Shown one piece after another: positions 11,564-54,270 of a stretch of DNA of 64,000 bases. Numbering within the stretch: the first letter of the stretch is position 1; each line of letters opens with the position of its first letter. The position numbers were made by a program, and so were the translations under genes. The notes beneath the pieces were generated by a model. That model was not told the origin of the DNA and ran no database searches. It saw nothing but the letters and a program-made list of their open reading frames with translations. The stretch is from Actinomycetota bacterium (GTDB taxonomy: Bacteria > Actinomycetota > JAHEXW01): the NCBI GenBank assembly GCA_025355855.1, contig JANXYU010000035.1:20604-84603 (forward strand). Reading direction: 5' to 3'.

Positions 11564-11723
11564 TGACTCGAAAAGGTTGTTTTTTGCTTACCGAAGTGTT
11601 ACATTGGAAAGGTGCTAGAGGTAAACGTATCTACTGGTCATAATGCACCTCAGCTCTGATAGTGAGTAGCAGTTCCGGCGAACAAGCATAAGGAATGAGC
11701 TTACTAGCAAGGCAAGGGGCATC

Positions 11724-12827: not shown

Positions 12828-12828
12828 G

Positions 12829-13950: not shown

Positions 13951-13982
13951 CATGATGCTTCACATGAGGAAAGGATAAGGCC

Positions 13983-25900: not shown

Positions 25901-28900
25901 GGGTATCGTCGCCACGGCGCCGTCAAGCATCGTCGCGGAAAGCAAGGATAAGTCCGGCTACGCGAGTACCGCACTTGCTCTGGGAGACATGACTAATAAA
26001 TGGTTCCACGCGACGCTGTCAGTGGACGATGCCGCAGCCGGGACTTTCTCGACATTTGTTTATGAAATAAATAACCCGGGCAACAGCGCGACCTTTACCA
26101 AGGCGATGCCGCGCGGCATTTCGTGGCGCTTCCATAGCTCTATGGACGTGGGAACGGGATATATCGATAACTATGAGGAAGTGCGGCCCGCAGCCGCGAC
26201 GGTCATTCAAGGTCAATCATTTACGCTCGCCGGTACGGCAAATGACGCCCTGACGGGCATCGACGACGTGCAAATCAATATTGACGGGCGAGCCTGGTGG
26301 GAACCGATGGGCCCGTCGACGATAGTTGACACGTGCGATGCGATTGCGGGTTGGGCCAGCTCGTCGGGCACCTTATTGCTTAACGCACCCGACATTGTCA
26401 GCAGTTTTAGTTCTAACGGAACATTCGTCATGCCCAGCGGGCCGAGCACGGTTAAAGCGCTTGTGGTTGGCGGCGGCGGCGGCGGGGCCAATACCGGGTC
26501 CGGCGGCGGCGCCGGAGGCTATATATACCAATCCGCTTTGTCGCTAACCCCGGGTAGCTATCCTATAGTGGTTGGCGGCGGCGGCGCGGGCGGCGCGACC
26601 ACCGCAGCTGCCGGAACAAAAGGCAATAATTCGACCTTCGCCGGTATGACAGCCGAGGGCGGAGGTAATGGGGTATCGCACGGCAGCGGCAACGGCGGTA
26701 ACGGCGGCAGTGGCGGCGGCGGCGCGATTTCGACAACAACTCTGTTTGCGGGCGGTACAGGGTCGCAAGGCAACGCCGGCGGTGCCGGTTTCCTTGAAAC
26801 CAACTGGCTCGGTAATAGCGGCGGCGGCGGCGGCGCGGGAACCGCGGGCGTAACCGGAGGAAACTACCCCGGCGCCGGTAACGGCGGCACCGGTCTTAGT
26901 AACTTTATTTCAGGATCGGCTGTGACATATGCGGGCGGCGGCGGCGCTGGCGAGGTCAACGGAAGCTACGTTGGCGTTGGCGTCGACGGCGGCGGCAATG
27001 CGAACGTGAACGCGGCCGGTTCCAACGGGGTCAACGGCCGGGGCGGCGGCGGCGGCGGCGGTTCCTATAATTCTGGAACCTATACCAACGGCGGCAGCGG
27101 CGGATCCGGAGTGGTGATTGTCAGCTACGCCGATTCCAGCGGCACGTCCCAGATCGAAGGCAATTCCGCGTTGCGGCTGCAAAAGACGTCAACAGCTTCG
27201 ACACAGAACGCCTTTAGTAAAACAATCAGTGCGACTGATATGAGCGGCAAGCGGATCAATGTCTGGCTGTATGTTCGTGACGCTACGGCTCGCAATAAGA
27301 TTTCCCAAGTCCAAATGTACGTCGGCGGATCGACCTGGCTGCTGCAGAAAGCAGTCGACCGGAGCAGTTTGGCAATAGGTTGGAACACAATCTCCATCGA
27401 TATGATGAGCCCGGACGGGGTTTGGTTCAGCGGGGGTACTCCCGATTTGCGCTCCGTAACCACGATTAGGCTTGACGTGAATACTAACAACGCGTCTGAC
27501 TTATACGGTAGCGGTGAATTCATCATGGACCGCTGGACCTTATCGCCGTCGACCCGGGTCGATCAATCTGTGGGGACGACTTCCACCGGGCTGGTCGGGG
27601 ACTGGCATCTCGACGAGAATGCCGCGACGACGGCAATCGATTCTACCGGCAACAATAACGGCACAGTATCGGGTACCGGCTACTGGACCACCGGGCGCTA
27701 CGGCGCGTCCGCGATGTTGGGCAGCGGCGACGATATGGTCAACGTGCCTGAGACCAACACGGCGCTCAGATTAGGCGCTCAGCAGAGTACGGAAGCGTGG
27801 GTAAAATTCAACGGTACCGCGGCGGATTCGGTTCGCCTGGTCGGCAAAGGCAACGGTAATAACCGCAATTACGGCCTCTGGTTAATGACCGACGGATCGA
27901 TTCTTAATCAATTCCAGAATACCTCGTGGGCAGTTTATAGTTGTCAATCAACCACAAAGGTTAATGACGGGGCCTGGCATCACGTGGTCGGCACGTATAA
28001 CGGCAGTGTCATGAAAGTCTACATCGATGGCGTGGAAGCTGCCTCCTACAGTCCTGGAGCGATAACGCCGGTTACCTCGGTCGATCCGCTGACGATTGGC
28101 TACGGCAACGCCGGCGCCGCCTTGAACGGCGTCATCGACGAGGTCAAAGTATATAATGTAGCGCTCACGGCCGATCAGGTATCCAGCCGCTACGTAGAAG
28201 GGCCGGTAACCAGCGGTTCGCCTTATCTGACTTACCAAGGCAACTGGCGCCACCTGCTTAACCCGGTCGGTACCTACATGAGCGGCGGCAGCGTTAAGAC
28301 CAGCAATCACGCGACTGATACGGCGACAGTTACGTTCACCGGAACGTCCGTTACCTGGATCGGTACGCGCGGTCCGGACCGAGGAATTGCTCAACTGTTT
28401 GTCGACGGCTTCCGCGTGACGGACGGCGATACTCTGCTTACTGGAGATACAGGTACGGGGTCGAACGGTTTGCCAAACATGAGCGGTTTTGACCTCTACA
28501 GTGTAGCCGGTTCGTACCGGCAACTCCTGTACACCAAGAGCGGTTTGTCGAATGCTCAGCATACGTTGACAATAACTGTTACCGGCGCGAAAAATGGTGC
28601 CGCGACCGACGGTTATGTCGATGTTGACGCCGTCGACCTCGGCAACGCATATCCCTGGACCTATACCTTTAGCACGGCCGGTTGGGCCGCGGGCGCCCAT
28701 ACGCTAACGGCCCGAACTTTTGATAAGGCCGGCAATACGGCGACCGCGCCGACTGCGTATACGATTAATATTGACGACGCCGATCCTGTCGTTGCCCTAA
28801 CCAGCCCGGCGGATGGCATTTGGTCCAACGCGTCCGCCTTTGACATCAAAGGCCGGGCGACCGACGCCGACTTCAATTACTATATGCTGGAATACGGCTT

Positions 28901-31900
28901 GACCGCCTCGCCGTCTTACTGGTTCCCGGTCAACTCGAATCCGCGCTACAATCAGGTGACGGGCACCCCGCCCAACGATTATCTCGGTAAATTCAAGCCG
29001 CCATATGCCACACTCGACCCAGGCAACCAATTCCTGGCTGGGTGGGACCGTGCCAGCGCGGAAGGCTGGACGGCCGCCGGTTTTACGGCCGGACTTTCGA
29101 ATGGCGCTATCGGCGGTACGACCAATTCGACCGACGCCAGCTTGACGAGTCCGGGGATTGCCCTTGACAGTAACGTGTCTAAGGTCTTGCACGTGCGGAT
29201 GAAGAACGCCAATACAGCGGGCGATTCCGCCCAGTTCTACTGGTTGTACAGCTACCCCTATTCGGGATATTATGTGACCGGCAATGAATTTCTGCAACTC
29301 GGCGAGCTGCAGCCGACAACCCAGAATGAAAACGGCACATTCTCGGCGAGCCGAGGCATCTCGTGGCCGCTTGGACCGGCCAGTTACGCCGGTAAGTGGG
29401 TCGACTATCGCCTGAACATGAAGACCGGACAGGTTAGCGGTACGGCCAGAACGGAAGGCCCGACCACGACCACCGGTACCTGGACGACGGAGACCAATCC
29501 CGACGCCAGTGACGGTACCTCGCTGTACGCGACCGCCGCCGGCTCGGCGTCATATACGTTTAGCAACAACAATATCTCGGTCTTTACGACCAAGGGACCC
29601 AATCGCGGCAAGGCGCGTGTGTATTTTGACAACGCGTTAATAGTGGACGGGGACAATAAACTGACGACCGACAACCCGAACGATATCAACAAGTCCGGGC
29701 TTGATCTATACGCTCCGGTCACCCTGGGCCAACAGCTGGTCTACAGCAAGACGGCGATTCCGGATGTCTATACTTTATCGTCACCACGCACGCTGTCCAG
29801 CGGGTCGTCACTCCAGAGCCAGATGAACCTGACCGCCGGATCCGTCTTATCGATTGGCTCGACGCTAAAGATCGGCACCATCGCTCAAAATGCCGGCGAC
29901 GTCGCCAATATCGGCGGCTTTTGGACCGGAACCGGCCCTTGGACCCTCATCGGCACGCGCGCGATCATCAACAGCAACGTGGGTCTTCAAGGACCGTTAA
30001 CGGTAGTCCAAGGAGCGATCTTGCTCGCAAACTCCGCTATCAATACGAACTCGACAACCAACTCCTTGGTCGATACGCTTAATGTCGGCGGCAACTGGGT
30101 ATTCAGCAATACTCATACGATAAAGATCGAGTACACGGGTGAGAAAAACACCCTCTCCACCGGGACCCGAATCGATGTTGACGCCTACGAGGATACGTCT
30201 CTGCTGCAGGACTACCCCACCGGCTGGCCGGCGGTAGGCTTCTGGGCCGGCACCATCACCCAGATCAGACTTGATCCTAATTCAACCAGCGGCAACATAT
30301 TCGGTGTTGACTACATATCCCGGGAGGCGTCGGACGGCGTCTATAAGATCCGCTTGAGCGCATACGATAGGGCCGGACGGACCGCATCCACGCAAAGAAC
30401 CATAAACGTCGATACCACGCCGCCGAAGTGCATTCTAACGACGCCGACCAATATGCAATTCCTGTCCAGCGGCACCAACGTCAGCGTTACGGGCAACGCC
30501 GGCGACTACAACACCAACGGTGTCCAGAGCGGGGTCAACAAGGTTGAAGTCAGGGTTATCGCGGGTGTCAACGGCTTGACCGCGAATCCGGGTCCGTGGC
30601 AATTGGCAACGGGCACGACCAGCTGGAGCAAGACGATAAGTATCGCCGATGGCTGGTACGGGGTGCAGGCGCGCGCTACGGATAACGCCGGCAACATCCG
30701 GGAATCGAACATCGTCTATGTCACCGTCGACAACACACCGCCGCCGGTGCCGCGCTTGCGAGCGGTTACGTCCAAAACCGCGGGCGGAATACTCTTATCC
30801 TGGACGCCGGTCAAGGATGAGGGGTCAGGCGTCGACTACTATGTCGTCTATCGGAACAATGTTCCGATCACCGATAAGCTGTACTATCCGGACATGCGGA
30901 CAATCGACACCGTGGAAACCGGTACTACGCCAAAGAACTTCGGCGGTTCCAGCGACGAGATCTTCCGCAAATATTATGGCTGTAACGCGATCGATAAAGA
31001 CGGGTTTGGCTTTAACGCGAACGCGAACGTCAGATACGCGGTTCGCGCCGTAGACGCCGCCGGAAACTATTCGGCTAAGTACAGTCTGGCCGTGTACTAT
31101 GACACCAGACCGCCGGACGCGCCGGGTAACCCTGCCGCGTCGGTCGCCGGTGTCACCAATACAGGTCTGCTTTCATGGAGTCCTTCGGCCGACAACCAGG
31201 GCGTCGCCGAATACCGGATATATCGCGGTACTTCGCCGGGCTTCGTCGCTCCTGACGAAACGAAACAGGTCGGTTCCTGCGACGTGTCCGATCCGGGTAG
31301 CGGCGCCACAACGGTCACCAAGTTCTACGACCCGAATCTAGCCTGGAACCAGGACTACTACTATAAGGTAGTGGCCTTCGACGATATGATGAACTACTCA
31401 TCTCCGAGCGCCGAGGTCCATATCAAGACGCCGGCGTCCAAGACCGACTTTAACAGCGCCCTGCCTCACCTGGCTTATTCCAGCAATCCGACCGAGTGCG
31501 CCTTGTGTCACCGGGCGCATACGGCCAAAGGCGAGAAGCTAATCAACGAGACATATGAAGCCAAGTTATGCTTTACCTGTCACGACGGCTCCGGTTCGAA
31601 CTCCCCGACCAAGGCCGAGTTCGACTACTCGCCATCCGGCGCGCATCGTGTCCGAGACGAGCTGTATCCGGCGGGCAAGTTGTCTTGTATCGATTGTCAT
31701 AACCCGCACTTGAATACGGAAGCGGCCTCGGTCGACAACTTTGACGATGACCTTAGGCTTAACACCGATCCGGTTACAGGTAAGCCGATATCCATAATTC
31801 CCACCGTCCCCAGTGATTGGACCTGCACAGGCGGGAATTGGGCGATGTCTACCAGCCTGATCGGCAGCCCGGCCTATCCTGATCCGACCCACGCGGAGCT

Positions 31901-34900
31901 GCGCCAATCAGACACCGGCGCGAGTGCCGCGTTCGCCAAAAAGGATACCGGCTTGGTCGGAATTGCCAGCAAGGGCGGCTACTTCTCAACAGAGGTGAAA
32001 CTCAATAGTGACGGCCGGGCTTATCTAAGCATCGCGGGAGACGGATCGGCCTCCAGCGGGCTGATTGGCTCGATTACGCGGACGGGATCATCGGCTGTCT
32101 TCTCACTGACGGATGGTATCACGACCAAAACCGCCAGTTTCGCGTACGATTCCGCGATTCAGTATCGCATTAACTTAAAGATCAACCCGGAGCGCTGGGT
32201 GCAAGGAACCGTTACTACGGTTACCAAGGCCGATCTGCCGGACGGTCACGATACGATAACCGACGCGGCGGTTGCGCGCGGCGACTTCATCGCTAGCGCC
32301 ACTTCGTTTGTGGGCTCCTGGGTCGGTCTCGGCACCAGCGGCGCGTCGGCCGATTTTGACATGGTCAAGATCAATAATCCGGGCATGCTCCAGACTCGCT
32401 ATCGCGAGTTCACTCAGACGTCAGGTTCCAGCTATAGCATTCCCGATGACCGTGTTCTTACCGAAGCGTTCTGTCTGTCCTGCCACGGCACGTCGAATGA
32501 CAACCCGGGCGGCAGCCAGATGCAGTACTATACCTCCATCCATAACCCGGAAATGGGCGGCATGCAGGGTCAGATCAGCGACCAAGACTTAACCAACTAT
32601 GTCCGGAACAACCCGGGCCAGGTCACGCCTCGTTGGCAGGTTATCCGGGATGAATGGAAGGATCTTAAGACCAATCCTGCCTACGTCCTGTTGGGCACGG
32701 GACAAACCATCGGGTCATCGCTGAAGAATACCTCGAACGGTTGTTTCTACTGCCATGGCTACCACGGCCTGCAGTTCTACTATAGAACGCAGAAGGGCGA
32801 GGAAGAGCTGTGTTACAACTGCCATGGTCGGACGGCCAACAAATCCAGGGACGGCTGGAATGTCTACCAGCAATACAACGGCTTTGTCCAGCAGAACTCG
32901 CCCTTCCTGACCTACGCGGGCACCTGGCTGACCGAGGAAAGCGCCAACTATGGCGACAACGCCGTCAAATACGCCGTCGGCGGCGTCGTTGTCCCGCCCT
33001 GGTACAACGCCTCGTGGGTAAGCCGGAAACTGATCACGATCAATAATCCAAACGTCGGCGTGGACAACTATCAAGTCAAACTGACTATCGCCAAAGAGCC
33101 CGGCATGAAGGCGGATTATTCCGATCTTAGGTTTGCCACCTCAGACGGCACGACGATGCGGACTTTCTGGATGGAGAAATACGATTCCGCCTCGGCTATC
33201 GTCTGGGTCAACCTGCCGCGTTTGGACAGCGGCAACAGCTCCAACAACAATAAACTCTATCTATACTATGGCAACCCCGGCGCGGCGTCGGCCTCCAATA
33301 TTGTCGGAACGTTCCTATACGCCGATGACTTTACCGCAACAACGATCGACTCATCCTGGTCACCGGTCGGTTCGGTGACAATGGACGGAACCGCTGCCGG
33401 TTGGGTTACGCTGAATTCCGTCGGCGCCACCGGCCCGGCGACCATTACTCATAGCTATCCGGTCCAGACCGGCGACTATGTGGTTGAGGCTAAGGCGAAG
33501 TTCCCGTCCGTCTACCGTCAGCGCCCGCGTCTGTTGAAATCGGACAACACCGATCCGACGGGCATCACCGACTACGGTTTCGGCGACAACCAGGTAACTG
33601 TCACCGCCTACGGCGGCGGCACTACCTTGACCGATTACATGACCAGCTGGTGGAATGGTGATCCGTCAGCGACAACAGCAGTACCCCCGTGGGACAACAA
33701 TGCCGGGAACGACTATGTTACCGGCTTGACACCGCAGGAACTCTTGATGCAATATAAACTGCAAGCCTCACCACAGCAATTCACCTGGCAATATTACGAC
33801 TACGCCGGTTATAACAGCGGCGGCGCCCCCCTGCGGACGCACAGCACGACCGGCGGAACCACCAATACCTATGCTAAGGTTCAATTCTCGGGTTCGCAGA
33901 GCGACAACTCCGACTGGCTGATCGATTGGGTCCGCGTTCGCAAGTACTTGCCGACAGACCCGACGGTCGTCTATAGTCCCCCTGACGGCACAACGGCCAA
34001 TTCGGTTTCCTTCACGTTCACCGGAACGGAATTCTCCTGGGCCTCGACCAAGGGACCGGATCGCGGCGTCGCCACCGTCTTTATCGACAATGTCTCGCAA
34101 GGCGACGTAAACTTGCAGCTGCCGCCCGAGCAAGGTTATCTCTACAACACGACCGTATTCAACAAGCAATACCTGTCACTGACGCCGCACACCGTAGTCA
34201 TCACGGCGAAAGCCGGCCGAGTCGACATCGACGCGGTTCAGGGCGGCACCAACGGTTCACGCCATGGTTTGACGATTCGCGACGCCCAGATAAAATGTAC
34301 CAGCTGTCACGGCCAGCGGGCGATGACCGACCGGCATGTCTACGAGGGCTTTGCGACGTCGATTATCGCCAACCCGGCTAATATCAAGCAGTACTGGTCT
34401 GACATGCGCAACGTCAACAAGACAATCAATGACTACTGCAACACGTGTCACAAGGAAGCGGATACGAGAGGCCGCGTCTTGCGCGAGACCCATACGTCCA
34501 GCAAGATCATTCCTTATACCATCAAGTATCCGCCGCTGATCACTACGACCTCGGCTAACGGTTTCGACCGGACCGGTTATACCCTGGGCGATATCTACCC
34601 GATCCAGGAGAACTTCACTGGCGTGGTGAAATATCCGCTGGCCGCTTGGACGACCGATTCGCCGGGTACGGACGATTATGAAGGCGGCGAGGATATCTAT
34701 AGTTCGCCGACCAGCCCCGATATCACCGCTTACGTAGAGTACACGTTCACCGGTACCTACTGCGCCTACGTGGCGCGCTATGGACCGGACAGCGGAATCG
34801 CTCAGGTGCTCATCGACGGGCAACGCTACACAGACGGCAACGTCTCGTTGCCTGGGGATAACCCCAACGAATACTCGGGTGTCGACCTCTATAGCTCTGT

Positions 34901-35516
34901 GCCTGCCTATCGAATCGTCGCGGCCACCCGCAGCAGTCTCCCGATGGGTTCGCACACGATAAGAGTAAAGGTTACGAGCAATAAGAATGCCTTGTCCAGC
35001 GGTTATAGAATTGATGTCGACGCGTTCAAATATGCGGTACCGCGCGTCGGCCACTATCTGTTCGCGCCGCAAGGCCCGGCCACGACGATAATATCGATAG
35101 CCGATCCGACTCACTTCACAGTGGCGAACGCCGGGATGGCTCAGTTGGCGGTCGGCAACACCATCACCATCGACTTCGGCGAAGTGCCGCATCCGGCGCA
35201 ATCGATGACAATCGTCAGTTTGGCGGGCAATGCCGTCGAGGTATCGAGCGGGCTTAACGCCAGTCACACGGTTGACTGCACGGTATCCAACACGACCAAG
35301 GCCAACTGCGCCGGTGTTTGTCACGACCCGTTGCCTGACTATATCAAGAACTCTCAGGAAGCCAAGACCAAGATCACCTGCGTCACCTGTCACCATCCGC
35401 ACGCGACGCCGTATCAAAGGGTTGTCAGGTGGCCGGAAGACACCAAAGTAGGTAATATCGTGACCGAGGGAGCCTGCCTCCACTGTCACAACGGCTCGGT
35501 TAAGTATAATTATTGA
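13983..35516 (+). CDS. Giant (7177 aa) mosaic cell-surface protein: N-terminal TM/signal anchor, tandem Ig-like modules, 8x ~110-aa 'TFTGT..GPNRG' beta-modules, 3x DUF2341, 2x LamG, Gly-rich (PF12810-like) domain, 2x FN3, and a C-terminal OmcS-like multiheme module (10 CXXCH + 1 CX3CH) split by lectin-like insertions
   Basis: 21.5 kb without an in-frame stop; TTG start with RBS GAGGAAAGG; domain signatures read from the translation (see findings); ends in TGA at 35514-35516. Confidence 0.85.
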   Translation: MVKLAKSHPLKFIGLVLGLVVIYVCLGTNVLIRTAQGEGAIGAAWAIHVDTPVTVKLNQTFTVKVGLVDQMGKPLTGRTYGTGYGQFYLPGDAIKNADGQVAEYWADTKNVREVKDKSDNGTGVYAIPVIVKAWPAPVSSNIYTLEASYIGQGAGSADQATDPTFALVDRTTFTADGADGTEGVIRYAPVLTNKLTVKVPVTQPDKPTPEPLQNIVTVRVKPIAQIRDSVHHNRKLSGLADPLDTSNWLAPTAVDNTGHNVAVTFGTIKEETVIKHGAKGNTTVGIGVYDVQLIITSPVTLAGKRAAITFGLDATGVQMKMSTTVNFSTAVEESANYNSLYGVPYLVEVPHTPVIYDDPDMDFFWVGVTPLNAEERFADYDVYPVTDTGEVTNSFYMINEEGLRVRIKCLRLYATIEDPDMIEVGTPPEQVSLNVKGAEMFVREKTGNPAQDVPPAGAGGGAGVGANGTGFAMRAVDGAFNSPYEQVKYDMYPTGSDPTSLYASTLAEKQYLFWVHGKNQLDVWGYYGIDATSIPVPKILSIDRTAPTVSITDPPFENPARQVAGNHLSVAGTVNADNGGTFRSSLNSVEIYDGWDAAWTDAGINLDKYTNTWSTMYDTLFEPGNAYTLQARAIDGAGNMTPAGSYGTRNVIIDNTKPLASVSSPGDGMGYPTGTTNITVTGAVYDPDTATIGDLSFDHYTVEWAPGIKLSGDADTGWTMINSGTAAVGGASTTGTLANWNVGPTGANLTEGPYSLRVRCWDKAGNRSDENPTGYNNLMYVFIDSSNPFSALTVPYVDGSANNWTASTIRGTGRDFMAVGGAQRYEEDAAGISYFTSSGSAGGWALATSTDNSFSNNGARYAATANYYAQFTFTGTYVTWVSTRGPNRGSAQVWIDGAFVKTVNLNAPGVTYYYQQEVFSKTFTTGGSHTLKIVVVSGQVDVDAMDLYAGSGVNLIDTRIRRVADGYYWHDSTDATPSYRNTFQPASAGTPWLAATVNSGRHTAYVTNWQYSVAAIPSHTQVDISTRATDDTGNVEASPTSTRILVQTEAPVTTYQPPANGLNNWYVLVMPDNIVPPLLLTGTEPSSPNAGAKNIYYQWTSTAVGTAPTSGYINYSAASPATSISHILDLDSPSHGLTQDGTRRLWYYSSDIVGNSETPHYTDFSRDIVAPVAPAFTAPQLPDYQYQRATVSLTGNTSDATSGVNKVEMTAQNNAGLYWGGPGTTTWTSTPVWFQISGTTAWTYGFNSVAAAGGDGNYTFRARSTDNAGNVSGVGALTCVIDNTAPTTYHTFSIPSPDGDNGWYKTDISVSLVPRDPAPGSGINLTYGGWNFNNSNVNITGQWGGLSTNPDLNGTYYFGYYSTDNSGNSQTPVFVNFKKDSERPFSTITTPTLDGQYLRRSIAFAGTAWDPTNPGSPGSGLQREEVTIRENFAPFYYWNGVAGAGAAWTATPVWVPATGSTSWTYSWDTLNTNVPQDNADYKLVARAVDNAGGAQVTPVERVVHVDNTPPVVTLVDPPDNEGLVPTDYPIRATFSEKMAPGTINSPAANFIIKNSVGAAMPGTILYSEQGASYFAVFSVTGTFSRGAVLTGVVNRGATDLAGNPVIVNHSASGTSIVGQEPWSAITYSGAGWSTVSDAGASGGAYKHSNVDTNYAEVTFTGTDFKWLSGKGPNYGIAHVWLDDTVDQGTFDLYNASQQYKQAIVNLTGLTDTTHKLKIIVTNAKNAASSDYFIDIDAFEGAVNTTWKFTTAGVDAQIWQPVTGSRVYGQVPIMGQANGEAFQQYKLQYKKNDGTDTFHDFGVVHTTPQVSQVWPFQTDWSDGATGGPSPQEVIDPANPEHPAGRYHTATNITANGADAASSLQLSSAGTVWPYRKAITITNTGAQMTDYQIRVPVTFVTSHMKANFDDIRFTDSNGQDILAHWKESFTASSAAVFWTKIPVVPAGTPANPTVKTIYMNYGNFNAQSGSSNGANVFDRFDDFNDASLNSSVWTNLGGASEGSGTLNFNVDAYNYNDWTAGGRSAPAVKLATPPTGDFTARIKISAFSAQAYTQAGISAYNSDISAYLMGLENNATVTRYQLDKIGGTAIPATYYANNQATKFLYITRLGASYIFQISDIDGTNLQQIGTTPYNDIPLSNVVLFAREWYNPATGTSGYPSVNMDDFFVQKYSGTATASTFVNNVTVGNPGAENMDGPLATAYAASGSLVSSVFNSTSPNDWGLVKWTESVPTGTRITIQVRHNTTAADNNPEDGGWSAWSAPITVSAGEQIPGFNAQYIQYKVNMFANSNATKTPVLNDITFYNGVLETWDTTSLPLGDGSYTIRLLVSDQLTDPPDPWKTDAPGKHSISAQVVVNVENTSKPTSTITAPAIAPPKNTTAVQIKGTTDVTGTGYDEFPGVGKIEIRVKRSSDGLYWSGSGNNWSSNANQWILTTDIEGAAAYRYWKYSLNTTLQDSGNSVFTDGLYTIESKATDKAGAQALLSPDPYPLITIRIDNTPPTGSITFPASNGYVSGGFVSVDGGVNDPPDDANLLDFKLEYRKTGASTWNVIANDSYEHPRLPLGTRYWKQTSGADFNAGSNALANGNGTTLMATTVLAQGTTTTALADTLYLGGAWTFDANSGLYTLVFANRTLLADVDFLTLQGEVRLAPGSWLPYRTILLVGTTTTSFDDTTNIGGVWSNANGLYTLITANRLVSTGVTLQGKLNMGGRVEMDRFLLTDGFNGSSINGTNWLSVDTGGNMSVANAVSVNGPNDSQQMTYTPALATVRNFDRSTTQNIEADFTFSSFTATSLGNAGTYFGWKNTTSLYDLGQYVHAFWIFNGQVNVYNNGASASTGYSLTAGVKYRLRVDLKTAGGATYYFSNDGGMTWTTAYDTAAGTATPLKAGFTNNKYPYLGYPVNTFTFDTVTIQKYLTGPSTYTSAVYDAGASINWNTTGQIKWSEANVNGTTSDVTLQTRTGSSATAGDQNWTGWSTSYTNPAGEAITSVPNRYIQYRVSETYTGTYAPNSPLPAVGDVTLSYTGGTGASQLEYWNTSGLQEGTYTLRLTITDKAGNTNTTPIESKPVTLDKTAPHASLNNIGTVFGAKRYIRANIGLTGTADDGMWTNRMPIAITNPTGSAQTDYQVKVPVTFAAGMRSDFNDLRFTDGSGNKLPYWIETFTASSAATVWVLLPALPSPGGTTIYMTYGNSAADVTNQSFNKVMRDANDMANAYRQDLPVTGAVGLWHLETPTTSGLNYLWTDSTANANNAVLDNGAWSYTQYGHMQGAAGAYFDGIDDVATVANSASLQALTGNATFEFWIYPQNISAGRSNPIDKSYGGQFSFTLETNGSLTYYHGTAKTNGSYTTFMAVPPGSLENNNWYHVAVVRDNTAKTLKGYLNGVLVSSTTYTILPGAATDNMTFGIGYAGTPFKGLLDEVRISNAALTSDAIMKDVGIRKWSASEPVAGAPGANAANIYEWGNFGHYELTFAGPEGGTIPPAFAGGTTPVTGGALGTWNTRAVQDGDNYSVKLYDIDLANNTATTSLTGMTIDNTPPRVSSMVPAKNETFVDDRISQKAYFTESVRAATLDTPAVSFTKKLMNLPNTLVAGTVKYTELGAMYYATFTQTTPPLTYDAWYTDTISPAVKDQAGNPLAVAFEETDALVSYTGTGWTDATSASASGGAYKWSNTAADDVTIGFDTDTAAGTGTAVAWVGQKGPNRGIARVYLDGVDVGTIDQYSATTVWQQPLYKTGDFTNGHHTLRIVATGTKNGASSDTRVDVDAFWLDFNTVWNFQVAGIEVGISSPTPNQRLRGTAPITGTADGSVASFQNWILEYAPHGTNSWTNITTSTTRVVNGLLANWATPASGQYDVRLTVNDTTSPTPRFKQKTVVVTVDNTNPTVSVDRLTYFRDSFDARDATNWSYNNALTTVPVSLNGQNVIRNVGAGGQTWASNFYRPNYTIKDRDQVSFDFRMASGATSFYNFLEGNDNQGEYMRWGIVATAPSSIVAESKDKSGYASTALALGDMTNKWFHATLSVDDAAAGTFSTFVYEINNPGNSATFTKAMPRGISWRFHSSMDVGTGYIDNYEEVRPAAATVIQGQSFTLAGTANDALTGIDDVQINIDGRAWWEPMGPSTIVDTCDAIAGWASSSGTLLLNAPDIVSSFSSNGTFVMPSGPSTVKALVVGGGGGGANTGSGGGAGGYIYQSALSLTPGSYPIVVGGGGAGGATTAAAGTKGNNSTFAGMTAEGGGNGVSHGSGNGGNGGSGGGGAISTTTLFAGGTGSQGNAGGAGFLETNWLGNSGGGGGAGTAGVTGGNYPGAGNGGTGLSNFISGSAVTYAGGGGAGEVNGSYVGVGVDGGGNANVNAAGSNGVNGRGGGGGGGSYNSGTYTNGGSGGSGVVIVSYADSSGTSQIEGNSALRLQKTSTASTQNAFSKTISATDMSGKRINVWLYVRDATARNKISQVQMYVGGSTWLLQKAVDRSSLAIGWNTISIDMMSPDGVWFSGGTPDLRSVTTIRLDVNTNNASDLYGSGEFIMDRWTLSPSTRVDQSVGTTSTGLVGDWHLDENAATTAIDSTGNNNGTVSGTGYWTTGRYGASAMLGSGDDMVNVPETNTALRLGAQQSTEAWVKFNGTAADSVRLVGKGNGNNRNYGLWLMTDGSILNQFQNTSWAVYSCQSTTKVNDGAWHHVVGTYNGSVMKVYIDGVEAASYSPGAITPVTSVDPLTIGYGNAGAALNGVIDEVKVYNVALTADQVSSRYVEGPVTSGSPYLTYQGNWRHLLNPVGTYMSGGSVKTSNHATDTATVTFTGTSVTWIGTRGPDRGIAQLFVDGFRVTDGDTLLTGDTGTGSNGLPNMSGFDLYSVAGSYRQLLYTKSGLSNAQHTLTITVTGAKNGAATDGYVDVDAVDLGNAYPWTYTFSTAGWAAGAHTLTARTFDKAGNTATAPTAYTINIDDADPVVALTSPADGIWSNASAFDIKGRATDADFNYYMLEYGLTASPSYWFPVNSNPRYNQVTGTPPNDYLGKFKPPYATLDPGNQFLAGWDRASAEGWTAAGFTAGLSNGAIGGTTNSTDASLTSPGIALDSNVSKVLHVRMKNANTAGDSAQFYWLYSYPYSGYYVTGNEFLQLGELQPTTQNENGTFSASRGISWPLGPASYAGKWVDYRLNMKTGQVSGTARTEGPTTTTGTWTTETNPDASDGTSLYATAAGSASYTFSNNNISVFTTKGPNRGKARVYFDNALIVDGDNKLTTDNPNDINKSGLDLYAPVTLGQQLVYSKTAIPDVYTLSSPRTLSSGSSLQSQMNLTAGSVLSIGSTLKIGTIAQNAGDVANIGGFWTGTGPWTLIGTRAIINSNVGLQGPLTVVQGAILLANSAINTNSTTNSLVDTLNVGGNWVFSNTHTIKIEYTGEKNTLSTGTRIDVDAYEDTSLLQDYPTGWPAVGFWAGTITQIRLDPNSTSGNIFGVDYISREASDGVYKIRLSAYDRAGRTASTQRTINVDTTPPKCILTTPTNMQFLSSGTNVSVTGNAGDYNTNGVQSGVNKVEVRVIAGVNGLTANPGPWQLATGTTSWSKTISIADGWYGVQARATDNAGNIRESNIVYVTVDNTPPPVPRLRAVTSKTAGGILLSWTPVKDEGSGVDYYVVYRNNVPITDKLYYPDMRTIDTVETGTTPKNFGGSSDEIFRKYYGCNAIDKDGFGFNANANVRYAVRAVDAAGNYSAKYSLAVYYDTRPPDAPGNPAASVAGVTNTGLLSWSPSADNQGVAEYRIYRGTSPGFVAPDETKQVGSCDVSDPGSGATTVTKFYDPNLAWNQDYYYKVVAFDDMMNYSSPSAEVHIKTPASKTDFNSALPHLAYSSNPTECALCHRAHTAKGEKLINETYEAKLCFTCHDGSGSNSPTKAEFDYSPSGAHRVRDELYPAGKLSCIDCHNPHLNTEAASVDNFDDDLRLNTDPVTGKPISIIPTVPSDWTCTGGNWAMSTSLIGSPAYPDPTHAELRQSDTGASAAFAKKDTGLVGIASKGGYFSTEVKLNSDGRAYLSIAGDGSASSGLIGSITRTGSSAVFSLTDGITTKTASFAYDSAIQYRINLKINPERWVQGTVTTVTKADLPDGHDTITDAAVARGDFIASATSFVGSWVGLGTSGASADFDMVKINNPGMLQTRYREFTQTSGSSYSIPDDRVLTEAFCLSCHGTSNDNPGGSQMQYYTSIHNPEMGGMQGQISDQDLTNYVRNNPGQVTPRWQVIRDEWKDLKTNPAYVLLGTGQTIGSSLKNTSNGCFYCHGYHGLQFYYRTQKGEEELCYNCHGRTANKSRDGWNVYQQYNGFVQQNSPFLTYAGTWLTEESANYGDNAVKYAVGGVVVPPWYNASWVSRKLITINNPNVGVDNYQVKLTIAKEPGMKADYSDLRFATSDGTTMRTFWMEKYDSASAIVWVNLPRLDSGNSSNNNKLYLYYGNPGAASASNIVGTFLYADDFTATTIDSSWSPVGSVTMDGTAAGWVTLNSVGATGPATITHSYPVQTGDYVVEAKAKFPSVYRQRPRLLKSDNTDPTGITDYGFGDNQVTVTAYGGGTTLTDYMTSWWNGDPSATTAVPPWDNNAGNDYVTGLTPQELLMQYKLQASPQQFTWQYYDYAGYNSGGAPLRTHSTTGGTTNTYAKVQFSGSQSDNSDWLIDWVRVRKYLPTDPTVVYSPPDGTTANSVSFTFTGTEFSWASTKGPDRGVATVFIDNVSQGDVNLQLPPEQGYLYNTTVFNKQYLSLTPHTVVITAKAGRVDIDAVQGGTNGSRHGLTIRDAQIKCTSCHGQRAMTDRHVYEGFATSIIANPANIKQYWSDMRNVNKTINDYCNTCHKEADTRGRVLRETHTSSKIIPYTIKYPPLITTTSANGFDRTGYTLGDIYPIQENFTGVVKYPLAAWTTDSPGTDDYEGGEDIYSSPTSPDITAYVEYTFTGTYCAYVARYGPDSGIAQVLIDGQRYTDGNVSLPGDNPNEYSGVDLYSSVPAYRIVAATRSSLPMGSHTIRVKVTSNKNALSSGYRIDVDAFKYAVPRVGHYLFAPQGPATTIISIADPTHFTVANAGMAQLAVGNTITIDFGEVPHPAQSMTIVSLAGNAVEVSSGLNASHTVDCTVSNTTKANCAGVCHDPLPDYIKNSQEAKTKITCVTCHHPHATPYQRVVRWPEDTKVGNIVTEGACLHCHNGSVKYNY

Positions 35517-35518
35517 TG

Positions 35519-35527
35519 TGGTATAAT
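35519..35527 (+). promoter_or_regulatory. Extended -10 element TGgTATAAT at the very 3' end of the giant gene, positioned to drive the downstream cytochrome gene
   Basis: TG at 35519-35520, TATAAT at 35522-35527; no obvious -35. Confidence 0.3.
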
Positions 35528-35563
35528 CGAAAAACACCAGTCAACAGCGATAATGAGGGAGAA

Positions 35564-37978
35564 ATGATGAACCGATTGCACCGGTTCCAGCCGGTAGGTA
35601 GGGGCGGATTTACCCCGTGGTTGATTGCGGCGGTCGGCGTTTTGGCAACGCTGTTTCTGACCTATTTCTCCGCTTCCGGGCTGACCTACAAAAATATTGA
35701 AACGGATTATCAGAAGACTTATTCCCATTACGCTCCGGCGGGCAAGCACAGCGATACCGAAACCTATGCCTGGGATCCGTCCCTTGGCTCGACCGACGTC
35801 GAACGGCTGACGGCCAATCTCAGCAAGCGGCACGCTAATTGCGACGACTGCCATGATCCGCATTCGGCCACGCGAGCCTCGTCACCTCTCGGTAGCTATT
35901 TCGGCGCCGGGACGCAAGCCAATGTCAGCGGCGTCCGCCCGGTTTACGGATTGACGGCAGGCACGGTACCGCAGTTCGCTTTCGAAGCCTCAGTCGTCAA
36001 AGAGTACGAGCTCTGTTTCAAGTGCCATTCCAGCTATGCTTTCAACTACGATTTGTATCAGGCGACCTATGGACACCCAATGGCGTTCAACTGGACAAAG
36101 CGGCGTTACTGGCAGCCCGGCGATCCGGGGACTGACGATATTATCAACGAGACGGATACCGCCAAAGAATTCAACCCGAACAACGTTTCTTACCACCCCG
36201 TGCTAAAGCAAGGACCAATCCCGGGAAACAAGACTCTAACCTGGGCCAACGGAATATATTTCGACGAGACGTTCGTGCCGGGGATGGGCGCGGGCAGCTA
36301 CATAAAATGCAGCGACTGCCATACCAGCGACACCAATAACGCCAAAGGCCCGCACGGGTCCAACCAGCGTTATATCCTAGCGGCGCGCGCGCCGACGCAG
36401 GAACCGACGATTACCCGGTCCATCACACTTGGCGCCATCCGGCCGACCAACGGGGGCGGCCGATCTGCGGCGGCCATGGTCTGGTACATCCGGACAACTG
36501 AACTCCTCTGTTATAAATGCCATAGCGTCGACTATTATGGTCCAGGCAAAGGGCATCCGTCGCACGGTAAGCATTCGACCAACTGTACCTGGCACCGGCC
36601 TATCGCCTTAGATGAAGTAGGCTGCGCGACGTGCAAGGCGACGCCGATTCACGGCTCAGTGGCGACACCTTATTTGATGATTTTTAATAACGGCAGCTGG
36701 TGCTACAACTGCCACCCGTTTAGGGCTGGCGCGCGCGGTTCCGACTATATGGGCGGCGAACCGTCCTGCCCCCGCTTCTATTCCGTTGCCTCCGACGGGA
36801 CGACAGTCGAAGAGACCCGCGTCCACTTCCAGTCCTCTCGCCTGAAGGCGGGCGCTGAGTACGATGTGCCCCTGCCGACGCCGGACATGCCTAACCTGAA
36901 GGGCCTGGGCAACATCCCGGCCTACAGATACTACAATCGCGACGACGACTACGTCCTGTTCAAAAAAGGCACACCGGTCATCGATGCGAAAGCCAACACA
37001 TACTCGGTCACCTTCAACCAACCCTCCTCGGGCGACAGGCCCGACGGCCAACCGGTGGGCGAGGTCGGCTACGAGGACCAGATATCATTGTGGACGGTAG
37101 ACCACGCCAAAGACAGTCAGGTCTATGTCTCCGTCGAGGGGAACGTGACCGCAGTCAAACCTACCGACGTAGTCACGCCGAAGACGGCCACCGACAACCT
37201 GGGCAACGACGTAACCGACGTCATCGCTCGCCGGACGCTCTCGACCGAGGACCGCTCCGGCTGGTTTACCGGCACCGTCGGCTACGGCAACACCATCGAC
37301 GAGATCTACAAATCAGGCAACTCCTTCGTCATGGACTTCGGGGACTTGAGTTCCGCCAAGACGGTCAAGCTCCTCTGGGGCGTCAACGAGGAGAAAGGCG
37401 GCAAACTGCCGATATACGTCCAGACGAAGAACGCCAAAGGACAATGGGTCACCCGAGGGAGTGCCCGACACTCCGAGGACCGTTTCGGCTACCTCGACTT
37501 GACCGGACTCTTCCCCAAGGGGACCCGTCACTTCCAGGTGAAGATCATCCCAACCTTGAACTCCATTGACTACATGGCGATCGCCACGAAAGACTCGCCC
37601 GTCAAGGTAAATAAGCTACCTATCAAGCAAGCGACCTATACCAAGTATCAGGGAGAGACGACCGACGTCACGGCCTTACTAAACGCGCGCGACAACCAAT
37701 ACGTCACATATGATTATCGCGATACGAGCAATCTCTTATTCACCATACCCGCCAAGGACAAGACCTTGACGCGACGCGACTTCCTGTTCGCGCCCGTCGG
37801 CTACTACGAGACTGGCGGCGACATCAACCCGAAAGCAACGCTGGACCCAATGACGGCGGAGAAGGCGCAAGACTTCGCCACGGTCACTCCGGCCGGCGGT
37901 TACGCCAATCATTACAACATCGGCTTGATCGACCCGGGCGCTTGGAACGAGACTTGGGATAGCAGGCTGGTGAAGTGA
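35564..37978 (+). CDS. Membrane-anchored pentaheme c-type cytochrome (N-terminal ~400 aa) fused to a C-terminal ~400-aa beta-rich domain of unknown function (ORF-track start 35513; ATG 35564 with RBS GAGGGAG preferred)
   Basis: TM helix; CDDCHDPH, CFKCH, CSDCHTSDTNNAKGPHGS, CYKCH, CYNCH; no heme motifs in the C-terminal half. Confidence 0.8.
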   Translation: MMNRLHRFQPVGRGGFTPWLIAAVGVLATLFLTYFSASGLTYKNIETDYQKTYSHYAPAGKHSDTETYAWDPSLGSTDVERLTANLSKRHANCDDCHDPHSATRASSPLGSYFGAGTQANVSGVRPVYGLTAGTVPQFAFEASVVKEYELCFKCHSSYAFNYDLYQATYGHPMAFNWTKRRYWQPGDPGTDDIINETDTAKEFNPNNVSYHPVLKQGPIPGNKTLTWANGIYFDETFVPGMGAGSYIKCSDCHTSDTNNAKGPHGSNQRYILAARAPTQEPTITRSITLGAIRPTNGGGRSAAAMVWYIRTTELLCYKCHSVDYYGPGKGHPSHGKHSTNCTWHRPIALDEVGCATCKATPIHGSVATPYLMIFNNGSWCYNCHPFRAGARGSDYMGGEPSCPRFYSVASDGTTVEETRVHFQSSRLKAGAEYDVPLPTPDMPNLKGLGNIPAYRYYNRDDDYVLFKKGTPVIDAKANTYSVTFNQPSSGDRPDGQPVGEVGYEDQISLWTVDHAKDSQVYVSVEGNVTAVKPTDVVTPKTATDNLGNDVTDVIARRTLSTEDRSGWFTGTVGYGNTIDEIYKSGNSFVMDFGDLSSAKTVKLLWGVNEEKGGKLPIYVQTKNAKGQWVTRGSARHSEDRFGYLDLTGLFPKGTRHFQVKIIPTLNSIDYMAIATKDSPVKVNKLPIKQATYTKYQGETTDVTALLNARDNQYVTYDYRDTSNLLFTIPAKDKTLTRRDFLFAPVGYYETGGDINPKATLDPMTAEKAQDFATVTPAGGYANHYNIGLIDPGAWNETWDSRLVK

Positions 37979-39087
37979 GCCGGCGCGCCATTATGGCCAC
38001 CATTGGCGTTGTCATAGCGGCGATCGTGCTAATTGGCGGAGGATACCTGCTCTACCGGTATCTGAGGCCGAGTTACAAGTTGCAAGCGGTATATGTAACG
38101 ACAGAACCAAAGTTGGACGGCCAAGGGAATGACGCGGTCTGGAAAAACGCGCCGGAGCTGACGATTCCGATAGATCAGGCCGAGCCGATTACGATTAAGG
38201 CGGTCTATACGAAGACCAAGATTTTCTTTCTGGCGCGTTATGCCGATTCGAGCCAAGACGCGGTCTTCTCGCCCTGGGTGTACGACGGCAAGACTTGGGC
38301 ACACGGACGCCGCGGGGACGCTCTGGAGCTGTTTTTTGACATCGGAAACTCGGTGGTTGGTTTCCCGGACAAGGGTTTCAAGATAATGACCTACGGGTTT
38401 AAGCCGGGTTTAGAGATTTATAATTTTGGCCAGATAAACAAAGGGAAAAGCAAGAAGGTCTGGCCGGGCAGCCGGGGACGCGCCGATGTATGGCTGATGG
38501 GCGCGGGTAACGGGGCCGCTTTCGGAATCGGAGACGATATGATCTACCAGGCTAATCAGGACTATCTATTCAGTCCGGAGACAAGTCAGGCGCAAGTTTG
38601 GCCGCAATGGGATCAATTCACGAATCTTCGGGCCATCAACTTGAATAGTGACACGTGGCGCGAGGCCATCGCGGCCAGTGAAGGCGGCGAAGCGAAAAGC
38701 GTTAAGCAGGAGCAGCCGTATCTAATGTACACAGAGGGATTGAATCTCAACAATACGCCATATCCCTTCGACGATCAGCTGACGCCGATGACCGCCAGCG
38801 CGACCGCTCGAGCGGGCGACAAACTGCCTTTTGTCTACTACGCTCGCGATACCAAGGGAAATTGGGGTGGCAGCCGGGGAGACGTTAAGGGCACCATGAA
38901 ATGGTTGGCCGGAAACTGGACCGTCGAGATGGGCCGAAGTCTGAACACCAAGAACCCGGACGACATCGTATTTCGGACCAGAGAAGTAAATAACGTTCAT
39001 TTCGGGGCTTTGGTGCGGCGCGACGGGCAGACGACCCGGTTTAGCCCGCCGGCCACACTTGAGCTAGTGCCCCAGGGAGGCGAATAG
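37975..39087 (+). CDS. DOMON/CBM9/EB_dh-like secreted protein, family member 1 (TM-anchored, no heme-c motif)
   Basis: Family motifs: KLDGQGNDAVWKNAPELTI, GDDMIY, NNTPYPFD, WGGSRGDV, LNTKNPDDIVF; GTG start overlapping the upstream stop. Confidence 0.65.
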   Translation: MSRRAIMATIGVVIAAIVLIGGGYLLYRYLRPSYKLQAVYVTTEPKLDGQGNDAVWKNAPELTIPIDQAEPITIKAVYTKTKIFFLARYADSSQDAVFSPWVYDGKTWAHGRRGDALELFFDIGNSVVGFPDKGFKIMTYGFKPGLEIYNFGQINKGKSKKVWPGSRGRADVWLMGAGNGAAFGIGDDMIYQANQDYLFSPETSQAQVWPQWDQFTNLRAINLNSDTWREAIAASEGGEAKSVKQEQPYLMYTEGLNLNNTPYPFDDQLTPMTASATARAGDKLPFVYYARDTKGNWGGSRGDVKGTMKWLAGNWTVEMGRSLNTKNPDDIVFRTREVNNVHFGALVRRDGQTTRFSPPATLELVPQGGE

Positions 39088-39088
39088 C

Positions 39089-40138: not shown

Positions 40139-40141
40139 GTC

Positions 40142-41206: not shown

Positions 41207-41238
41207 GGAAGGTAACGCGAACGGCGCGTAATTCACAT

Positions 41239-47099: not shown

Positions 47100-47174
47100 A
47101 AAGTACCTAATTGAAGGAGAAGAACCGCTTTCTTGACGGATAGCCTAGAGATCCAAGAGCAAAGCGAGAGAATC

Positions 47175-49385: not shown

Positions 49386-49401
49386 AGGCCGAATACCAAT
49401 A

Positions 49402-53340: not shown

Positions 53341-53414
53341 CGTCGATCTGTTTACGGCCCTGACGTGTGATAAAATAATATATATAGTTTTCCAAGGAGA
53401 TAACCGAACAAAAC

Positions 53415-54269: not shown

Positions 54270-54270
54270 C

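Follow-up and report, generated by a model that had tools for sequence, protein, structure and literature searches.

The last 1,358 aa of the giant surface protein encoded in the window (the whole 64,000-nt stretch of DNA analyzed here) carry ten CXXCH sites that, judged by alignment, are hemes 1–10 of an uncurated 15-heme module of four tandem triheme-type units. The initial annotation had read the same tail as an OmcS-like heme module split by insertions; the tail is not an OmcS-type hexaheme with added sites, and the rest of its module is found on the next gene. This layout, a ten-heme tail with inserted domains and the last five sites on the following gene, is previously undescribed for an extracellular electron-transfer protein. 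The anatomy of the segment, its homology, its insertions, the gene split and the conservation of these features are documented here. In the reading we favor, and which we consider fairly probable, a giant secreted surface protein ends in an electron-transfer module, represented by this segment: a remodeled and split 15-heme wire that a partner protein completes. This wire would conduct electrons outside the cell, with its inserts as tethers.

The ten-heme tail and its module family

The giant gene (13983..35516, + strand) is a 7,177-aa ORF. Its product starts with a hydrophobic signal/anchor, continues for ~5,800 aa with Big_5, Big_13 and Big_3 (Ig-like), DUF2341, Laminin_G_3, Gly_rich_2 and "GPDRG" modules, and ends, after this passenger region, in the heme module. 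The ORF is considered real because a near-full-length ortholog exists (P0080, 7,157 aa, with a core 94% identical to the giant), together with further giants of 5,958–7,590 aa (P0081–84). No heme motif was found by translation scan in aa 1–5838. Heme motifs account for 22 of the 25 Cys in the C-terminal 1,358 aa, and the first 5,819 aa hold 9 Cys; with Cys concentrated in this way, the motif set is far from chance.

The scan returned exactly the ten CXXCH and one CX3CH that the initial annotation had listed. Hemes 1–3 start at nt 31497 (CALCH), 31569 (CFTCH) and 31686 (CIDCH), hemes 4–6 at 32472 (CLSCH), 32742 (CFYCH) and 32811 (CYNCH), and hemes 7–10 at 34296 (CTSCH), 34437 (CNTCH), 35379 (CVTCH) and 35475 (CLHCH). 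They are distributed over four segments (all + strand). Segment A (31440..31736) is repeat unit 1 with hemes 1–3; its Cys columns were 48/48 in the module alignment, and LPH, RAH, GAH and NPH supply conserved candidates for distal ligands. Segment B (32403..32882) holds hemes 4–6, of which hemes 5–6 open repeat unit 2. Segment C (34248..34598) holds hemes 7–8 and is the best conserved stretch of the whole module. Segment D (35277..35513) has the CX3CH site followed by hemes 9–10, and the giant terminates 9 residues past heme 10. The CX3CH site (CAGVCH, nt 35307–35324) was kept as NCAG[VTS]CH in the window's giant and in 8 of 9 clade relatives, and was deleted in P0082. No counterpart was found in the alignment of 42 contiguous modules or in OmcS, and from these comparisons the site appears as a clade-specific addition before heme 9.

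The ten CXXCH of the giant aligned 47–48/48 with hemes 1–10 of the 42 contiguous 15-heme modules, with the sites, the distal His and the non-expanded spacings all in register. Contiguous members differ from the giant in having 15 sites on one polypeptide and ~40–60 aa in each of loops 3>4, 6>7 and 8>9. Exactly 15 CXXCH were present in most of the best 150 matches. Repeat units 1–4 matched one another at 96–99% (pairwise hhalign) and follow the pattern CxxCHxxH ... CxxCH ... H ... CxxCHxPH, to which a fourth heme is added. The nearest unsplit relatives (P0087–89) have all 15 sites on one chain. Members of the family are surface proteins of Chloroflexota, Bacillota and Actinomycetota MAGs, labeled "cytochrome c3 family protein" at NCBI (for example, P0148, 910 aa; P0113, 1,898 aa; P0136, 5,472 aa), and the module is usually C-terminal in secreted proteins rich in Ig-like domains. 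No Pfam or NCBIfam model covers the family beyond the generic paired_CXXCH_1, no close solved structure was found by profile search against the PDB, and nothing specific was found in the literature on a 15-heme family or on giant Chloroflexi cytochromes.

The five small hexaheme paralogs mentioned in the initial annotation are present and are relatives of OmcS, which was the best PDB match of their family profile (6ef8, E 4.7e-14). All five have the OmcS-type layout (six CXXCH in a free-standing secreted protein of ~350–430 aa), which the giant does not have. The claim that the hemes of the giant occur in the order and context of these paralogs held for hemes 1–3, at which segment A matched the OmcS-like proteins at 99.3–99.6% (hhalign), and did not hold for the whole OmcS hexaheme subunit. 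Comparisons were made per segment and with a spliced core; in the latter, hemes 1–3 and hemes 5–7 both matched OmcS-like hemes 1–3 (99.6% and 99.1%, respectively). When the two families were compared, they matched at 99.7% (E 9e-26) and could be aligned colinearly over six hemes, and the profile of the 15-heme family found OmcS in the PDB at E 1.5e-8. OmcS was absent from single-sequence PDB searches with the segment (phmmer) and with a small paralog, which gave generic multiheme matches only. Because profiles match and single sequences do not, we see the homology to OmcS as one between repeat units and not between whole subunits. OmcS of Geobacter sulfurreducens (PDB 6EF8) thus shares with the giant the triheme building block, which is the N-terminal half of the hexahemes. 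OmcS is a free, polymerizing subunit of ~400 aa, whereas the giant system has the unit as four covalent repeats joined to a passenger region of 5,800 aa. A mapping of segment C to OmcS heme 4 and of segment D to OmcS hemes 5–6 was dropped as non-unique given the internal repeats, and a global hhalign that forced the OmcS-like family onto the segment with its insertions left in (1,358 aa) was uninterpretable across them.

The initial annotation had also proposed checking the histidine that OmcS donates to a neighboring subunit. This residue is OmcS His16, three positions past the heme-1 motif, and it serves heme 5 of the neighbor. Its equivalent, in CALCHRAH, was kept in all giants examined, was invariant in the OmcS-like family, and was at least 90% conserved in non-split 15-heme modules. 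Since it is also conserved in the latter, it is not diagnostic of filament formation.

Domains inserted between the hemes

The insertions had been proposed to be more than ordinary inter-heme loops, and the 42 homologs that hold the same ten sites contiguously identify them as true domain insertions. The spacings between hemes 1–10 of the giant (24, 39, 262, 90, 23, 495, 47, 314 and 32 aa), compared with the family medians (24, 42, 38, 48, 23, 41, 46, 60 and 30 aa), place the expansions in loops 3>4 (262 vs. 38 aa), 6>7 (495 vs. 41 aa) and 8>9 (314 vs. 60 aa), with loop 4>5 modestly expanded (90 vs. 48 aa). The inserted beta-domains total ~930 aa over the three loops. Single inserts occupy the same loops in other members of the family (6>7 in P0127 and P0145, 8>9 in P0203).

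Insertion I1 (31737..32402, + strand; loop 3>4) is a 222-aa beta-sandwich by AF2 and Foldseek. It agrees with the beta insertion of ~250 aa noted initially (aa 5919–6140, predicted all-beta, pLDDT 70–92 in the AF2 model). I1 had no Pfam match, and its profile gave nothing significant against the PDB. Foldseek matched the AF2 model to legume lectins, CBM66 and BoNT Hc (E 1e-5, prob 1.0, 190–250 aligned columns), with a TM (target) of 0.45–0.64 for the first two. The search output gives no query ranges, and we assign the matches to I1 because it is the sole confident domain of ~200 aa. I1 is thus probably, on the predicted structure, a ConA-like lectin or CBM66-type jelly roll. In the AF2 model of native aa 5919–6755, the heme segment had pLDDT <50.

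Insertion I2 (32883..34247, + strand; loop 6>7; 455 aa) consists of a DUF2341 domain, a middle region and the first "GPDRG" module (nt 33933–34247). The DUF2341 reported at ~33020–33290 was present and lies ~90 nt further downstream, at nt 33114–33359; it matched PF10102 over the full profile length (E ~1e-17 to 2e-17; 63.8–64.6 bits vs. a gathering cut-off of 23.4). The "LamG-like region" said to follow it received no Pfam match even at E up to 5, and its likeness to the Laminin_G_3 copies of the giant itself was <1% (hhalign); none of I1, I2 or I3 resembled those copies by hhalign. This middle region (~185 aa) is beta-rich and has ConA-like start and end motifs (FADDF...W and DWVRVRKY). AF2 gave pLDDT 73–80 for DUF2341, 60–83 for the GPDRG module and <50 for the middle region. 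I2 was missing from the homolog P0002, in which the DUF2341 block is gone outright, and from all contiguous modules.

Loop 8>9 holds insertion I3 (34599–35045, + strand), which is the second "GPDRG" module, and insertion I4 (35046–35276, + strand), a small beta-domain that opens with the unit-3 leader motif VGHY and was missing in orthologs P0081, P0091 and P0107. The two "TFTGT..GPDRG" modules are, as initially described, paralogous repeats. Their profile had CE2_N/CBM35-like matches, all sub-threshold, and nothing significant against the PDB; an additional word-indexed homolog search to deepen the insert alignments added 3 proteins only. Both DUF2341 (two more copies by Pfam) and GPDRG (5–6 more copies) have paralogs in the N-terminal part of the giant, and these upstream copies have no hemes nearby.

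In the decahemes MtrC, OmcA, MtrF and UndA of Shewanella, a surface multiheme chain is interleaved with non-heme beta-domains thought to bind substrates or flavins. These proteins are the nearest conceptual precedent for the giant; matches to Pfam Mtrc-MtrF_II-IV_dom were weak and there is no specific homology. Their beta-barrels alternate ancestrally with pentaheme domains, whereas the lectin, DUF2341 and CBM-like domains of the giant appear as recent insertions into loops of an otherwise contiguous module. Weak profile matches were also found to OcwA of Thermincola potens (6I5B, E 3e-8) and OmhA of Carboxydothermus ferrireducens (6QVM, E 6e-8). OcwA, OmhA and the S-layer/multiheme fusions of ANME (PMC7829351, PMC9012536) represent monoderm bacteria and archaea, in which multihemes joined to envelope-binding domains by fusion or association pass electrons across a thick wall or S-layer. 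They differ from the giant in heme counts and folds, have no domains between the hemes of one module, and lack a two-gene split.

The partner gene and the conserved locus

The partner gene (35564..37978, + strand) probably starts at ATG 35564, within an ORF open from TTG 35513. Its product has a signal peptide followed by sites 11–14 (CDDCH at 35840, CFKCH at 36014, CSDCH at 36308 and CYKCH at 36509), a CATCK at site 15 (36623), an additional CYNCH at 36701, and a beta-rich C-terminal region of ~400 aa. The partner aligned with module sites 11–15 and matched the region directly after heme 10 of P0105, P0113, P0148 and P0100 (blastp, E 2e-29 to 1e-15). The gene cut thus lies between hemes 10 and 11, within repeat unit 3, and because it lies inside a unit the two proteins probably assemble. 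Compared with the contiguous family, the giant and its partner show a 10 + 5 split, the loop inserts, the added CX3CH and a CXXCK at site 15, which is CXXCH in every contiguous module examined. In six loci the giant is followed by this same partner gene, and CA[ST]CK..P[IV]HG was present each time.

The clade of giants with expanded loops comprises at least 6 loci. All heme Cys and His were kept among giants at 51–94% identity. Giants from independent assemblies (ENA, JGI, NCBI and Logan) agreed on the three insertion sites, the stop after heme 10 and the partner gene. One Chloroflexia MAG (L003, 41% identity) was left out of these comparisons because of frameshift fragmentation.

Two OmcS-like hexaheme genes (11724–12827 and 12820–13950, + strand) lie directly upstream of the giant, a position kept in four other loci (L013, L014, L015 and L016). 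Three more (44896–45963, 45987–47099 and 47133–48227, + strand) are preceded by an ORF with a Spermine_synth domain (42281–44722). A TPR protein (9801–10565, + strand) and an NHL-repeat beta-propeller protein (10562–11563, + strand) are conserved companions of the cluster. The order TPR, NHL, two to three OmcS-like genes, giant, partner and EB_dh recurred in five to six lineages, with identities of 51–94%. Proteins with 10 and 12 hemes encoded upstream have NapC/NrfH-like N-termini. In Geobacter, the NHL-repeat protein GSU2505 adjoins omcS (PMC9070056), and the NHL and spermidine-synthase-like neighbors of that locus resemble those in this window (PMC9070056, PMC10599522).

A proposed tethered wire and its alternatives

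Three changes would have remodeled the module in this clade: beta-sandwich domains inserted in loops 3>4, 6>7 and 8>9, a CX3CH site gained ahead of heme 9, and a cut of the gene after heme 10 that left sites 11–15 and one extra CXXCH on a signal-peptide-bearing partner. The two polypeptides would rejoin outside the cytoplasm and complete unit 3, giving a continuous wire of ~16–17 hemes in which His of the partner probably ligate hemes held by the giant. The wire may be a link in an extracellular chain that starts at NapC/NrfH-like multiheme quinol dehydrogenases and passes via the wire to the co-encoded OmcS-like hexahemes. The lectin and CBM-like inserts would face away from the hemes and anchor or place the wire on envelope polysaccharide or on an external surface, and they would not themselves carry electrons.

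The initial annotation had offered a different model, in which the tail is one OmcS-type nanowire stack whose lectin-like insertions may load or gate the passage of electrons at a surface. Ligand binding would then alter heme spacing or potential. We regard this model as unlikely. The homology unit is the repeated triheme unit and not the OmcS subunit, the module spans 15 sites over two genes, no polymerization feature is specific to it, and there is no sign of contact between the inserts and the heme chain. Domains of these types also occur upstream, with no hemes nearby, so adhesion or tethering fits the inserts better than gating. A related proposal, slightly less doubtful in our judgment, is that the OmcS-homologous units of the giant dock or nucleate filaments of the five OmcS-like hexahemes, with the split wire as a covalent "root" that feeds them electrons. 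At all loci examined, OmcS-like genes adjoin the giant, both have the CHxxH histidine (OmcS His16) and the repeat unit in common, the split shows that one unit can be completed by two polypeptides, and the NHL and spermidine-synthase-like neighbors recur at the Geobacter omcS locus; nevertheless, nothing indicates that the small paralogs polymerize, the His16 equivalent is kept in free-standing 15-heme modules too, and adjacency may merely mean a shared pathway. Equally speculative is the extension of this proposal to a self-assembling junction, at which the 10-heme and 5-site pieces would complete one shared repeat unit by heme ligation between the two proteins. By the same principle, the OmcS-like hexahemes would polymerize onto the root, which the lectin and CBM-like inserts would fix in the envelope, and OmcS nanowires would descend from, or be related to, a wire of tandem heme repeats whose units have come unlinked.

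Site 15 raises the prospect of an extracellular enzyme, a surface-tethered reductase or oxidase formed by giant and partner that acts on a soluble substrate. In it, as in NrfA, CXXCK would bind a catalytic heme with a Lys ligand, and the other hemes would supply electrons. CA[ST]CK..P[IV]HG was invariant in the partners of the window and of six related loci, contiguous modules have CXXCH at this site, and the partner has gained its C-terminal domain of ~400 aa. The strictly conserved CXXCK is shared with NrfA, but the likeness stops at the motif: there is no homology around it, matches to Cytochrom_C552 and NrfB were weak, and the CXXCK of the partner lies outside the cytoplasm, at the end of a wire module. 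In passing, no gene for a CXXCK-specific heme lyase came to notice in the window. The substitution may equally tune the potential or abolish heme binding, and we consider a catalytic role improbable. That the ORF, the insertions or the split arose by misassembly, frameshift or gene degeneration was suggested by one related contig (L001), in which both the giant and the partner gene are broken. Intact giants in independent assemblies have the same insertions, end point and partner, and these orthologs effectively refute such an origin, to which we give almost no weight.

Extracellular electron transfer is poorly understood in monoderm walled lineages (Chloroflexota, Actinomycetota and Bacillota), for which the giant, its partner and their neighbors supply a specific and broadly conserved list of components. 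The 15-heme tandem-repeat module defined here occurs in hundreds of proteins, with 514 homologs of the module in all, and the tie between its repeat unit and the OmcS nanowire family bears on the evolution of cytochrome nanowires. Large inserts in three particular loops are tolerated by the wire, and so is a clean cut of the gene within a repeat unit; for engineering, the loops show where insertion is permitted and the cut shows a natural point at which to divide a heme wire. Leads to what the wire connects to come from the conserved CXXCK site and from the lectin-like inserts.

Heme sites and insertions of the giant protein

The giant protein (7,177 aa; ORF 13983-35516, + strand), encoded by the single very long ORF of the window, contained ten CXXCH motifs and one CX3CH motif, all within its final 1,339 residues. 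A scan of the translation placed the CXXCH motifs at 31497 (CALCH), 31569 (CFTCH), 31686 (CIDCH), 32472 (CLSCH), 32742 (CFYCH), 32811 (CYNCH), 34296 (CTSCH), 34437 (CNTCH), 35379 (CVTCH, heme 9), and 35475 (CLHCH, heme 10), and the CX3CH site (CAGVCH) at 35307-35324, essentially where the initial annotation had put them. In the last 1,358 aa, 22 of 25 Cys were inside heme motifs; the preceding 5,819 aa contained 9 Cys. The earlier observation on this segment was correct and the feature is real and conserved; the giant is regarded as a surface multiheme electron-transfer protein.

Close homologs of the segment were scarce in a word-indexed database (P0001 and P0002). P0001 showed the same layout as the giant, CAGSCH included, and in P0002, which lacks the 455-aa DUF2341 block, the seventh heme motif directly followed the sixth. 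The core query (455 aa, three suspected inserts removed) was searched against 1.84 billion representative proteins and resulted in 514 matches. Five giants (P0080-84; 5,958-7,590 aa; 62-94% identity) were matched in four separate stretches and thus have the same interruptions as the giant of the window. Dozens of other proteins matched the whole core contiguously, and almost all of these had exactly 15 CXXCH; in P0113, for example, query residues 9-450 matched residues 1170-1567. When 42 contiguous modules were aligned with the giant, every one of its ten CXXCH motifs fell in Cys columns conserved at 47-48 of 48. The median inter-heme spacing of the family was 24, 42, 38, 48, 23, 41, 46, 60, and 30, versus 24, 39, 262, 90, 23, 495, 47, 314, and 32 in the giant. 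Thus, the stretches between hemes 3 and 4, 6 and 7, and 8 and 9 hold genuine insertions, as had been proposed, and not ordinary loops. Single inserts were found independently in the same loops of other family members (P0127 and P0145 between hemes 6 and 7; P0203 between hemes 8 and 9).

The insert I1 (aa 5919-6140) was confidently predicted to be an all-beta domain (pLDDT 70-92), with no Pfam match and no PDB sequence match. A Foldseek search with the structure model returned legume lectins, CBM66, and the Hc domains of clostridial neurotoxins (E 1e-5 at prob 1.0, with alignments spanning 190-250 columns), matches that probably belong to I1, query ranges being absent from the Foldseek output. 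I2 (aa 6301-6755) comprised the annotated DUF2341 (Pfam match at nt 33114-33359), a region of ~185 aa, and a GPDRG module; the label "LamG-like" given to the ~185-aa region was supported neither by Pfam nor by hhalign against the giant's own Laminin_G_3. I3 was a second GPDRG module, and I4 was a small beta-domain missing in some orthologs. Paralogous copies of DUF2341 (two) and GPDRG (five to six) were present in the non-heme part of the giant, from whose own domain repertoire, judging by these copies, both kinds of insert come. The GPDRG module gave CE2_N/CBM35-like signals, sub-threshold throughout.

Partner gene and unusual candidate heme sites

The 15-heme module (window 31440-37978 and alignment A3) consisted of four tandem triheme-type units (hemes 1-4, 5-8, 9-12, and 13-15) that matched one another at 96-99% in hhalign. 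The ORF following the giant (35513-37978, likely start ATG 35564), termed the partner, matched contiguous modules from just past heme 10 (E 2e-29 to 1e-15 against the region starting directly after it) and aligned site by site to hemes 11-14; by this alignment, the five sites missing from the giant are assigned to the next gene. In six related loci, as in the window, the giant was followed by the partner gene, and the C-terminus of every giant lay a few residues past heme 10. In the closest unsplit relatives (P0087-89; 2,289-3,955 aa), all 15 sites were on one chain. Together, these results indicate a fission of the module gene that is specific to the giant-protein clade. The fission point (10|11) and I2 (6|7) occupied the equivalent loop of the repeat unit, the one that joins the second heme to the third, and unit 3 is therefore cut in two. 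Mainly for this reason, we infer that the giant C-terminus and the partner assemble, and partner histidines (YSH, KHSDTE) probably ligate hemes held by the giant. The partner signal peptide was cleavable-looking in some orthologs. In the related ENA contig L001, the giant gene (301-12350) and the partner gene (12386-15068) were each broken into two ORFs, probably by frameshifts or assembly errors of that contig; other loci were intact.

Besides the window's giant, eight of nine relatives in the clade kept the CX3CH motif (NCAG[VTS]CH); in P0082 it was deleted. The short segment that carries the motif, after the unit-3 leader (VGHY) and ahead of heme 9, is specific to the clade. No counterpart of the motif was found in any of the 42 contiguous modules, and it is a plausible candidate for an eleventh heme site. 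The unsplit P0089 (3,955 aa) had its own CX3CH (CAGGCH) as a 16th site past heme 15, at the C-terminus; therefore, such sites arose more than once in the family. Site 15, in the partner gene (36623-36637), read CATCK then PIHG and was followed by an extra CYNCH at nt 36701. The pattern CA[ST]CK..P[IV]HG was present without exception in the partner genes compared (window, L001, L002, L013, L014, L015, and L016), whereas site 15 was CXXCH in all contiguous 15-heme modules examined, closest unsplit relatives included. The CATCK site may be an NrfA-type Lys-ligated heme.

Gene neighborhood

The gene cluster is an extracellular electron-transfer island. Its full order was reproduced in L015: NapC/NrfH-like multiheme, Rex, x, HD-GYP/GAF, 15-heme 506-aa cytochrome, TPR, NHL, two OmcS-like genes, giant, and partner. 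The core of TPR, NHL, OmcS-like, giant, and partner, or parts of it, recurred in another four or five lineages. NrfH/NapC/TorC-like N-termini were seen in one 12-heme and two decaheme proteins (215-1963 and 4156-5235), which are candidates for the membrane quinol dehydrogenases that supply the pathway. The island also contains a Rex-type redox-sensing repressor (5260-5892) and a protein with GAF and HD-GYP domains (6612-8027); both have the same position in L015 and likely regulate the island. The 506-aa cytochrome (8242-9762), with 14 CXXCH and one CX4CH (CYQANCH, aa 376), preceded the TPR and NHL genes in L015 as well. Seven ORFs with EB_dh domains (ethylbenzene dehydrogenase gamma-like, heme b-binding) were located at 37975-42294 and 48510-50556, some apparently split (40142-40696 and 40730-41206); in L001 and L014, too, the giant was accompanied by EB_dh arrays. 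Two B12-binding radical SAM proteins are encoded in one run (50558-57814) with a UbiA prenyltransferase and a U32 peptidase-like protein, and these may be quinone biosynthesis or modification genes.

Among the neighbors of the small hexaheme genes were genes for TPR and NHL-repeat proteins and a spermidine-synthase-like ORF. This ORF (42281-44722; 813 aa), with a weak spermine/spermidine synthase domain, was directly upstream of three OmcS-like genes. Geobacter omcS (GSU2504) has the NHL-repeat gene GSU2505 at its flank, and the spermidine synthase gene GSU2502 is near omcS and adjoins omcT (PMC9070056, PMC10599522).

Kinship with OmcS and the proposed wire

The five hexaheme ORFs (355-376 aa; starts 11724, 12820, 44896, 45987, and 47133) shared 36-47% mutual identity. 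A profile from 60 members of their family (alignment A1) had OmcS as its top PDB match (E 4.7e-14, colinear across hemes 1-5; the OmcS sequence used was 100% identical to 6ef8_A), and these proteins are relatives of OmcS, as the initial annotation held. OmcS was absent from the matches when the giant's heme segment was searched directly against the PDB. In the giant's core, hemes 1-3 (99.6%) and hemes 5-7 (99.1%) each matched the triheme unit at the N-terminus of the OmcS-like family, and the OmcS-like and 15-heme families matched at 99.7% (E 9e-26). The 15-heme profile could be aligned colinearly with all six OmcS hemes (E 1.5e-8), with MtrA scoring above via repeated motif matches; because the module is repetitive, the mapping of hemes 4-6 was non-unique. 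Thus, "OmcS-like" fits the building block of the giant's heme segment but not the whole, which is a 15-heme tandem-repeat module over two genes. The initial interpretation was partly right, in the insertions and the OmcS kinship, and missed the tandem-repeat module and its division between two genes.

The giant and partner would form one wire of ~16-17 hemes that runs from quinol oxidation at the membrane to either the OmcS-like hexahemes or external acceptors, with the lectin/CBM-like inserts tethering or positioning it. Given the shared unit, the giant's heme module might instead be a root or adaptor for OmcS-like filaments, which we consider unlikely. That the inserts gate electron transfer, as first modeled, appears a little less likely again, and an enzymatic role for the CXXCK site, conserved as it is among partner genes, is highly improbable. 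By the profile comparisons, the N-terminal half of the OmcS family is the same triheme-type unit as in the 15-heme module, which suggests a building block common to OmcS-type polymers and this covalent wire.
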